A DNA stretch of 8,169 bases from a virus (Monodnaviria > Loebvirae > Hofneiviricota > Faserviricetes > Tubulavirales > Inoviridae), in IMG/VR virus record IMGVR_UViG_2541047720_000001, positions 1-8,169 of that record, one strand, 5' to 3'. A program made the position numbers and the translations under genes. The notes below the pieces were generated by a model. That model ran no database searches and had not been told where the DNA came from. It saw only the letters and a program-made list of their open reading frames with translations. This document shows positions 2,809-4,430 of the stretch, piece after piece (positions within the stretch are counted from its first letter, which is position 1; each line of letters opens with the position of its first letter).

Positions 2809-3150
2809 TTAAATCACCCTGTTTGCATAATCAAGAAATTTTTGTTTTAAATCGAAAACAAAAACACTGATACGAGTAACCATAATAACGTTAACACACG
2901 CCTGAAAATGGTCAGGCAATACAGACGCCATTAAATGGGAGAAATCAGCAGGTAAACCGTTATACATGACCTCAGCAAGGTACTGCATTAAAAGCGTAAC
3001 AGTTGTTGTAATTAATGCGACCAATGCAAAGGCGATTAATCCTGTTCTGGTAGCAAGTCGAGCTAAAAAACTCGCCACATAGCCAATAAACAAAGGAACA
3101 AGACCAATAAGAAAACGCAACAATGCAGGAATACCTAATAATAAAGGCAT
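2809..3150 (-). CDS. gVI: Gene VI minor coat protein (pVI), 113 aa
   Basis: [24 protein letters not shown] resembles M13 pVI (MPVLLGIPLLLRFLGF...), and the C-terminal FDLKQK matches FDVKQK. Its ATG (3148-3150) overlaps the gIII stop (TGA 3150-3152) by 1 nt. Confidence 0.8.
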   Translation of the reverse strand: MPLLLGIPALLRFLIGLVPLFIGYVASFLARLATRTGLIAFALVALITTTVTLLMQYLAEVMYNGLPADFSHLMASVLPDHFQACVNVIMVTRISVFVFDLKQKFLDYANRVI

Positions 3151-4430
3151 CACTCACCCCCTTTGCGAAGCAATGAAGTTAAAGAAGTAAAGACATACCA
3201 GAACGTAAGGCAATAAAAAACCCATGAAAGAACATCTTTAATAGTCAGTAATTTATCGCAACCAATATCAATCTGATAAACCTCTCCGGGAAAAATAATA
3301 AAATCAGAGCAGCCGTTACCATTGGGTAAATTAGGCAGCATAGCACCTTTATTTAAAAATGCTTCCCATAAAGCACCGTGAGAATCCTTTTCAATTCCCA
3401 ATTCAGAATCAGCCAAAGTAGAAGCGCCATCTAATTCAGAGTCGCCCTTTCCATAACGAGAATCACCACCTGAAGGGTCAGCAAAACGGCCAGCCCCCCG
3501 CGTAAGATTGTTAATGGAATCGTCAAGACGATTTATATTATTCCTAGTTTGTTCATCGGCATTTTTTTTATCATCTGATGAAGTGTCTTTCTCCGTTAAT
3601 TTATCATGAATATCGCTGGCTATTTTGGGTGAAGCACCTTCGATAGCAGACTGAATATCACCTTTAGAAAGACTGGAACCACTAAAGCCACCGCCAGAAC
3701 TACCGCCACCGGACTCACCACCGCCAGAACTACCGCCACCGGACTCACCACCGCCAGAACTACCGCCACCGGACTCACCACCGCCAGACTCACCACCGCC
3801 AGACTCACCACCACCATTTTGGGGGGTTGAGGGTTTATCAGAGGGGTCAGCTACAGTACCTGTAGGCTTCCATGTTGCAGCGCAAACAGTACCATCACCC
3901 TGACAAACAATGACACCAGTAGCCTCATATTCACAGCCGTTATAGTAGATATAACGACCACCATCATATGAATCAACATTATTAAATACACCTTCTTCTG
4001 GCGGCTTCGCTTCACAAATTTCTTCTGGTGTCGGGTCAGTAGGTTTTTCATCAGGAACAGAACGCTGAATATCACCAACAATATAAGCCGTTAAAGACCA
4101 ATATTTATCCTTCTGCCCTGGTGAATCGCTGTAAGTACAATCACCAGTAAAAACAAGACGGAATTCAGAATCAGGCCAGATACCCTCATAAGTTGGTTTA
4201 ACCTGAGTAAATACACTCTGAGCACTGGATTTAGCACCCTGACAAGCGGAGGCCTGCATAGCAGCATCAATATAGTAAACCGTTGACTTAGAGCCATCCT
4301 GATTGGTTATTTGCTTACTTTCAGCGTAGGCAGAGCTTTGATAAGTGGATTTAGTAATGCTTTCCCATGACTCAGCATGTGAAAAAGGAGAAATGAGGAC
4401 AGCGGAAAGAATTAATATTTTCCTTTTCAT
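3150..4430 (-). CDS. gIII: Gene III adsorption protein (pIII), 426 aa, IKe-like domain order
   Basis: Signal peptide [20 protein letters not shown] TolA-binding-like motif [27 protein letters not shown] matches M13 N1 (YEGCLWNATGVVVCTGDETQCYGTWVP). [11 protein letters not shown] linker follows, and the C-terminal domain [22 protein letters not shown]...[13 protein letters not shown] matches the M13 pIII C-terminus. Start taken at the ATG at 4428-4430; the longer six-frame ORF would overlap gVIII. Confidence 0.85.
3691..3810 (-). repeat. Perfect tandem DNA repeats (3 x 30 bp plus 2 x 15 bp) encoding the Gly-rich pIII linker
   Basis: The unit ccgccagaactaccgccaccggactcacca occurs at 3691-3720, 3721-3750 and 3751-3780, followed by two copies of ccgccagactcacca at 3781-3810. 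They encode the [10 protein letters not shown] repeats. Confidence 0.9.

Follow-up and report, generated by a model that had tools for sequence, protein, structure and literature searches.

We analysed gene III, which encodes the attachment protein pIII (g3p), in a filamentous prophage carried on an 8,169-nucleotide stretch of DNA (IMG/VR record IMGVR_UViG_2541047720_000001), referred to here in its full length as the window. The element lies in an Escherichia coli chromosome at the dif site beside hipBA. Between the dif sites, the minus strand carries a gene II remnant followed by genes V, VII, IX, VIII, III, VI, I and IV. Gene III is an intact minus-strand open reading frame (ORF) located between genes VIII and VI of the inovirus structural module, as seen from the Pfam matches of its neighbours and from collinearity with phages IKe, I2-2 and PEar1. 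Translation from an ATG at 4430 to a stop codon at 3150-3152 gives 426 residues, with no frameshift or premature stop. A longer frame around the gene extends up to 4574, overlapping gene VIII; the start at 4430 gives MKRKI..., which is in register with residue 1 of IKe, I2-2 and PEar1 pIII in the alignment. In tblastn searches pIII is 53-55% identical to the pIII proteins of I2-2, IKe and the PEar phages over residues 1-424, the best match in the phage database being I2-2 at 55%, and alignment shows that pIII is collinear over its full length with those of IKe, I2-2 and PEar1 at 54-55% identity. No NCBIfam model matches pIII. Eleven RefSeq genomes, including that of E. coli strain 16843, carry gene III with 100% DNA identity, and the identical protein is already in RefSeq as WP_000823306.1, the product in strain 16843.

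pIII is composed of a signal peptide, a pilus-binding-type domain, a Pro/Glu linker of a few residues, a TolA-binding domain, a Gly-rich linker and a C-terminal anchor, in this order (Table 1). Its first 19 residues are predicted, from alignment only, to be a cleavable N-terminal signal peptide. The match to PDB entry 4EO0, the pilus-binding domain of IKe, begins at residue 20, and residues 1-19 have a predicted local distance difference test (pLDDT) score below 50 in an AlphaFold2 model of pIII that we built from 59 homologues. Residues 20-128 match 4EO0 with an expect (E) value of 1.3e-26, and the Pfam family PF21443 ('G3P, pilus binding domain') covers residues 22-125 with an E value of 5.8e-26, spanning profile positions 2-105 of 105. 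The alignment gives 47.7% identity to IKe over the 109 residues and 48.6% to I2-2; Cys63 is conserved across the family, and Cys98 is aligned with the second IKe cysteine. The model has pLDDT values of 87-94 over residues 20-125, and Foldseek places it on 4EO0 with a template modelling (TM) score of 0.96 and a root-mean-square deviation (rmsd) of 1.1 Å at 47% identity. The original prediction, which was made from the sequence of the window, had pictured a distinct receptor domain of about 170 residues at the N-terminus. Residues 20-128 clearly align with a characterised pilus-binding domain and are modelled with its fold, so the domain is not distinct. Its length was also miscounted, because the TolA-binding-like motif from which the count was made, at residues 163-189 (3864-3944, minus strand), forms the second half of a TolA-binding domain whose start is near residue 130. 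Ahead of the motif, 162 residues make up the 19-residue signal peptide, a 109-residue domain, the short linker and the initial ~30 residues of the TolA-binding domain.

The motif itself had been recognised correctly, since it lies inside a domain that matches 4EO1, N1 and PF05357. Residues 130-195 match PDB 4EO1, the TolA-binding domain of IKe, at an E value of 4.2e-25 and 73% identity; residues 137-224 match the N1 domain of fd/M13 g3p (1G3P, 2G3P and the N1-TolA fusion 1TOL) at E values of 1e-10 to 1e-14; and PF05357 (Phage_Coat_A) covers residues 135-176. These matches are far above chance. The model reaches pLDDT values of 73-88 over residues 126-200, and Foldseek relates it to 4EO1 with a TM score of 0.88, an rmsd of 1.1 Å and 73% identity, while the N1 domain of phage If1 (2X9A) matches this second domain with a TM score of 0.88. 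Among the 59 homologues, Cys139 and Cys166 are invariant, and Cys176 and Cys183 are at least 90% conserved. The Gly-rich linker, where pLDDT falls below 50, contains a tandem DNA repeat at 3688-3816 with a period of 15/30 nucleotides, 4.3 copies of a 30-mer and 94% matches in Tandem Repeats Finder. In the C-terminal domain, residues 363-423 are matched by the C-terminal end of fd/f1 pIII from the virion-tip cryo-electron microscopy structures 8B3O, 8IXK and 8JWX (E value of 7e-07 for the stretch), and Cys374 and Cys391 are invariant in the homologues. The F-pilus-binding domain N2 of fd has no match anywhere in pIII in the PDB sequence search, and every fd N-terminal match falls within query residues 137-224, which agrees with the earlier view that the N-terminal domain does not resemble the Ff F-pilus-binding domain. 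The proposed IKe-like domain order is likewise confirmed: the TolA-binding domain is second in the chain, with PF21443 preceding PF05357, as in IKe, I2-2 and PEar1; If1, however, has the Ff order.

Table 1 Features of the window (positions 1 to 8,169), with gene III and its parts first.
Feature	Position	Strand	Basis or remark
Gene III, 426 residues plus stop, intact	3150-4430	-	Translation; tblastn; DNA identity to RefSeq genomes
pIII predicted signal peptide, residues 1-19, cleaved before ESWES	4374-4430	-	Column-for-column alignment with the annotated 19-residue IKe signal peptide
pIII IKe-type pilus-binding domain, residues 20-128 (109 residues)	4047-4373	-	PF21443, 4EO0, model
pIII TolA-binding (N1-type) domain, residues 130-195, Cys139/166/176/183	3846-4043	-	4EO1, fd/M13 N1, PF05357, Foldseek
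pIII Gly-rich repeat linker, residues 196-252	3675-3845	-	pLDDT < 50; tandem DNA repeat inside
pIII C-terminal domain, residues 253-426, Cys374/Cys391, hydrophobic virion/membrane anchor about 395-420	3153-3674	-	fd/f1 pIII match
Hairpin GGGGCA-CTCGT-TGCCCC then TTTATT, terminator-like, between genes VIII and III	4440-4466	-	Read directly from the sequence
Perfect 28-nucleotide E. coli dif, left prophage boundary	135-162	-	Exact match; 0/200 shuffles matched
77-residue accessory ORF with CxxC...CxxC, UPΦ 'h2' by position	201-434	-	ORF; equals hypothetical WP_001159442.1
Gene IV secretin, truncated at 751, fused in frame to the 3' part of h1	552-1799	-	Secretin Pfam positions 1-65 of 169
Gene I, assembly ATPase (Zot family)	1714-2808	-	Pfam PF05707, E 2.6e-40
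Gene VI, minor coat protein	2809-3153	-	Pfam PF17537 DUF5455; position as IKe gene VI
Gene VIII, major coat protein	4477-4719	-	Pfam PF19199, E 4.8e-19
Gene IX	4739-4834	-	ORF; stop/start overlap with gene VII
Gene VII	4834-4920	-	ORF; G7P-2 annotation at the matching position of locus L002
Gene V, single-stranded DNA-binding protein, Ypf-like type	4923-5240	-	Pfam PF17426, E 7.4e-51; Ypf likeness per PMC7307601
Gene II 3' remnant, pX-equivalent C-terminal part only	5252-5596	-	Pfam PF05155 G2P_X_C
234-residue ORF in a low-GC (guanine-cytosine) region (32-33%), between prophage core and hipA-side junction	5683-6387	+	Hypothetical in strain 16843
dif-like junction GGTGCGCATAA-TGTACGACTCG-TTATGTTGAAA, right prophage boundary by hipA	6452-6484	-	Sequence reading
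hipA and hipB	6563-8169	-	Chromosomal flank

The prophage belongs to the already published UPΦ viruses, filamentous prophages of Enterobacterales that integrate at dif, are related to IKe and I2-2 (Lineavirus type), and combine genes II and V of Ypf-like type with the accessory genes h1/h2 (Shapiro & Putonti 2020, PMC7307601). This identity follows from the integration at dif, the IKe/I2-2-like structural genes, the GGGES-repeat g3p and the match to ECONIH2, whose gene III is 97.7% identical to that of the window; ORFs are also present at the h1/h2 positions. ECONIH2 is a UPΦ lysogen that serves as the worked example of the 2020 paper, and variation of UPΦ g3p mainly in the number of GGGES repeats is described there for UPΦ901 (PMC7307601). 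Over the stretch from gene IV to gene VIII, the DNA is 67-68% identical to that of I2-2, IKe and the Erwinia PEar phages; past window position ~4900, in genes V and II, the nucleotide match to IKe and I2-2 ceases. Using pIII in a protein search, we recover the same host spectrum as that published for UPΦ, namely E. coli, Salmonella, Klebsiella, C. koseri and Y. enterocolitica (PMC7307601). Among 5,426 complete E. coli genomes in RefSeq, 36, ECONIH2 among them, hold most of the window by hipA, usually as tandem intact copies; gene III has a match of any extent in 62, over most of the gene in 53, and at 99% identity or more in 11. We rejected CUS-1/YpfΦ as the identity of the element. They are likewise dif-integrated filamentous prophages, of E. 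coli and Yersinia, with related genes II and V, but the structural genes here are IKe/I2-2-like and Ypf shares only genes II and V. Outside these two genes Ypf is < 20% identical to UPΦ, attachment protein included (PMC7307601). The search of species-representative genomes for relatives returned four loci, with no Yersinia pestis among them.

At the right boundary, the dif-like junction has an identical XerC-side arm, an 11-nucleotide spacer and a degenerate XerD-side arm, and window positions 6383-6486 recur at the junction between tandem prophage copies in loci L001 and L002, the latter being an intact copy in strain 16843. Immediately inside this junction, at ~6410-6453 on the minus strand, there is a strong GC-rich hairpin (GGCCGCTGCG...CGCAGCGGCC) that may act as a terminator or belong to the phage attachment/origin region.

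The 229 'UPΦ viruses' of the 2020 paper have a complete core gene set (PMC7307601), whereas genes II and IV are truncated here; this copy is thus a degraded UPΦ prophage and not a complete one. Using L002 as the intact reference and blastn breaks to call deletions, we found two. The first removed 488 bp at window position 751 (L002 2513-3000), and with it ~103 C-terminal residues of pIV and the start of h1; the h1-position ORF is 5'-truncated and fused to gene IV and the h2-position ORF is intact, both being equated with h1/h2 by position only. The second removed about 1.5 kb at window 5584-5596, where the junction overlaps by 13 nucleotides, so that gene II lost its N-terminal two thirds along with small ORFs lying upstream. 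Among the 5,426 complete E. coli genomes, there was no single contiguous match to the window that spanned both deletions. Because gene II is without its 5' two thirds and gene IV without the end of its secretin domain, this copy is predicted to be incapable of replicating or exporting virions by itself. It is also a single copy, while its relatives are usually tandem doubles or triples. Such losses, together with the single copy between the dif sites, would suit a gene III that is itself a decaying remnant without current function, its ORF retained only incidentally. We consider this rather unlikely, as the gene is 100% DNA-identical to that of intact tandem prophages and has neither a frameshift nor a premature stop; this identity and the open frame make the deletions look recent. 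Decay would, moreover, describe the state of this copy and not what the protein is.

Three further elements of the locus deserve mention. A scan for promoter and terminator consensus sequences gave no call at the hairpin between genes VIII and III, and IKe has an annotated stem-loop terminator at the equivalent position. The 77-residue ORF contains two CxxC pairs and is zinc-ribbon-like, with zinc-finger matches that are weak and sub-threshold. For the 234-residue ORF we found no convincing family match; by eye, its C-terminal part looks hydrophobic and resembles membrane segments.

We compared the domains of pIII across the 59 homologues. Clustering at 60% identity divides the N-terminal domain into 18 clusters, the TolA-binding domain into 8 and the C-terminal domain into 11; at 40% identity the respective numbers are 11, 1 and 1. 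In several homologues the TolA-binding domain is 73-88% identical to that of the window, whereas the N-terminal domain is only 17-34% identical. The N-terminal domain of the window itself belongs to an 18-member cluster of UPΦ type, with 72-96% identity inside the cluster and about 48% to IKe/I2-2. The 11 clusters against one for each of the other domains, together with these mosaic identities, mark the N-terminal domain as the apparent diversifying module and the most variable part of the protein, as expected of a primary receptor binder. Four relatives (P0015, P0023, P0040 and P0052) are mosaic, their identity to the window differing sharply by domain: for P0023, it rises from 32% over the N-terminal domain to 88% over the TolA-binding domain, and for P0015, from 68% over the TolA-binding domain to 100% over the C-terminal anchor. 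Such a pattern suggests recombination between domains.

Two other relatives are unusual. P0063, an E. coli protein of 508 residues annotated as a secretin, combines secretin domains with PF21443 and shows 93% identity to a portion of pIII; either a fusion of pIV with pIII or an artefact of assembly may explain it, and the PEar paper mentions similarity between pIV and pIII. A contig binned as 'Candidatus Nanosynbacter' (locus L007) encodes a pIII that is 93% identical to the one studied here and is almost certainly a mis-binned enterobacterial contig.

By homology with IKe, gene III very probably encodes the host-attachment protein of a UPΦ virus, which would engage a pilus first and TolA second. 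In the passage of PMC6431161 that cites Jakob 2012, the first domain of IKe p3 is said to bind the pilus and the second to bind TolA, and the pili used by IKe are those of incompatibility group (Inc) N and I2 plasmids, at their tips (PMC7911639). Following this model, a few copies of pIII would sit at one tip of the virion, held by the C-terminal domain (residues 253-426), and the N-terminal domain would bind the tip of a retractile conjugative pilus, whose retraction would draw the phage to the envelope. The second domain, with its 73% identity to 4EO1, would then bind the C-terminal domain of TolA, and the C-terminal hydrophobic segment would enter the inner membrane with TolQRA, leading to uncoating and DNA entry. 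Our best guess, by analogy, is that the pilus is of the VirB-like type that IncN and IncI2 plasmids encode. The sequence and structural comparisons establish the architecture of pIII, the homology and fold of each domain and the genomic setting, whereas the binding to a pilus and to TolA, and the class of pilus, are inferred. Several genera harbour identical UPΦ genomes (PMC7307601), which fits a plasmid-borne receptor in combination with a conserved TolA.

Several observations weigh against this assignment. The UPΦ authors' attempts at infection failed, and no UPΦ receptor has been demonstrated (PMC7307601). Identity to IKe within the N-terminal domain is no more than 48%, and specificity for N/I2 pili may not hold. 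The PEar domain is 54% identical to that of IKe, and PEar infects Erwinia amylovora through a receptor that is not defined, so a restriction of the domain family to conjugative pili is not proven. Finally, lysogen 20Y000092, which contains intact tandem copies, carries an F-type IncFII plasmid; this is anecdotal, coming from one strain, and the plasmids that a strain carries now reveal little about earlier infections. Looking at adjacent accession numbers, we found no further plasmid for 20Y000092 and none for strain 16843. The original prediction had left the primary receptor open, and in a narrower sense it was right: 48% identity to IKe does not allow pilus specificity to be read off, and the attempts at infection had failed. 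The point is not new, however, as the receptor of UPΦ viruses was already flagged as open in 2020 (PMC7307601).

It is quite possible, if short of probable, that the UPΦ-type N-terminal domain recognises a receptor other than the N or I2 pilus, either another class of conjugative pilus or a chromosomal filament common to E. coli, Salmonella, Klebsiella, Citrobacter and Yersinia. If this is true, the 11 or more domain types on a conserved TolA-binding chassis would represent a set of swappable receptor specificities. A separate proposal comes from the UPΦ authors, who suggested the IncI1 (I-type) conjugative pilus as the primary receptor of the same architecture. Their proposal is a guess from plasmid co-occurrence: 4/4 UPΦ901 lysogens of their collection carried an IncI plasmid, and they note that I2-2 and IKe infect IncI hosts (PMC7307601). 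The four lysogens, however, carry nearly identical phages and their independence is not shown, the failed infections count here as well, and the IncI1-specific phage If1 has the Ff-type order and no alignable counterpart of residues 20-128 (a forced alignment gives 18.9% identity). The transfer genes of IncI2 plasmids are VirB-like rather than I1-like. Sensitivity to IKe is reported for IncI2 and IncN, not IncI1 (PMC7911639), and on balance we find an IncI1 receptor improbable.

We give equally little credence to a receptor encoded by the chromosome, in which case the N-terminal domain would have diverged to bind a fimbria, a type IV pilus or an outer-membrane component common to Enterobacterales. 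UPΦ prophages do occur in many genera and lineages (PMC7307601 and the searches here), the N-terminal domain is the fastest-diverging module, and PEar phages form plaques on wild Erwinia amylovora with no plasmid dependence reported. Yet the one member of this family that has been characterised binds conjugative pili, ordinary laboratory and clinical E. coli were not infected (PMC7307601), and the presence of gene III in only 62 of the 5,426 E. coli genomes (most of it in 53) fits a rare receptor better. Attachment to a conjugative pilus followed by TolA remains our preferred reading of pIII. Since urinary E. coli are enriched for UPΦ prophages and these also pass from one genus to another, the identity of the pilus would tell which plasmids make a strain susceptible.

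The feature is an ordinary one, an IKe-type attachment protein of a published prophage family whose two receptor-binding domains are both covered by Pfam and PDB, and the value of the analysis lies mainly in correct annotation of the pilus-binding domain (residues 20-128) and the TolA-binding domain (residues 130-195). The "hypothetical" label in some RefSeq records can safely be replaced by IKe-type (Lineavirus-type) G3P attachment protein. With the G3P of IKe (Lineavirus IKe), pIII shares the domain order, the conserved cysteines, folds that superpose at an rmsd of 1.1 Å and a gene position between VIII and VI; identity is 48% for the pilus-binding domain, rises to 73% for the TolA-binding domain and is 52% for the C-terminal domain. 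The linker repeat differs, being of the GGDTGG type in IKe, and IKe is episomal, whereas the phage here is dif-integrating and its genes II and V are Ypf-like. The two IKe domains reportedly fold independently, with a TolA site that is always exposed and of low affinity, whereas N1 and N2 of fd form a locked pair; independent folding of this kind appears compatible with the short Pro/Glu linker of pIII. The architecture of I2-2 G3P is also the same, but its N-terminal domain is 91% identical to that of IKe and only 49% to the domain described here. The G3P proteins of If1 and the Ff phages (fd/M13/f1) share with pIII a homologous TolA-binding N1 fold and a C-terminal anchor domain. In contrast to pIII, they carry the TolA-binding domain first and the pilus-binding N2 domain after it, and N2 is unrelated to anything in pIII.

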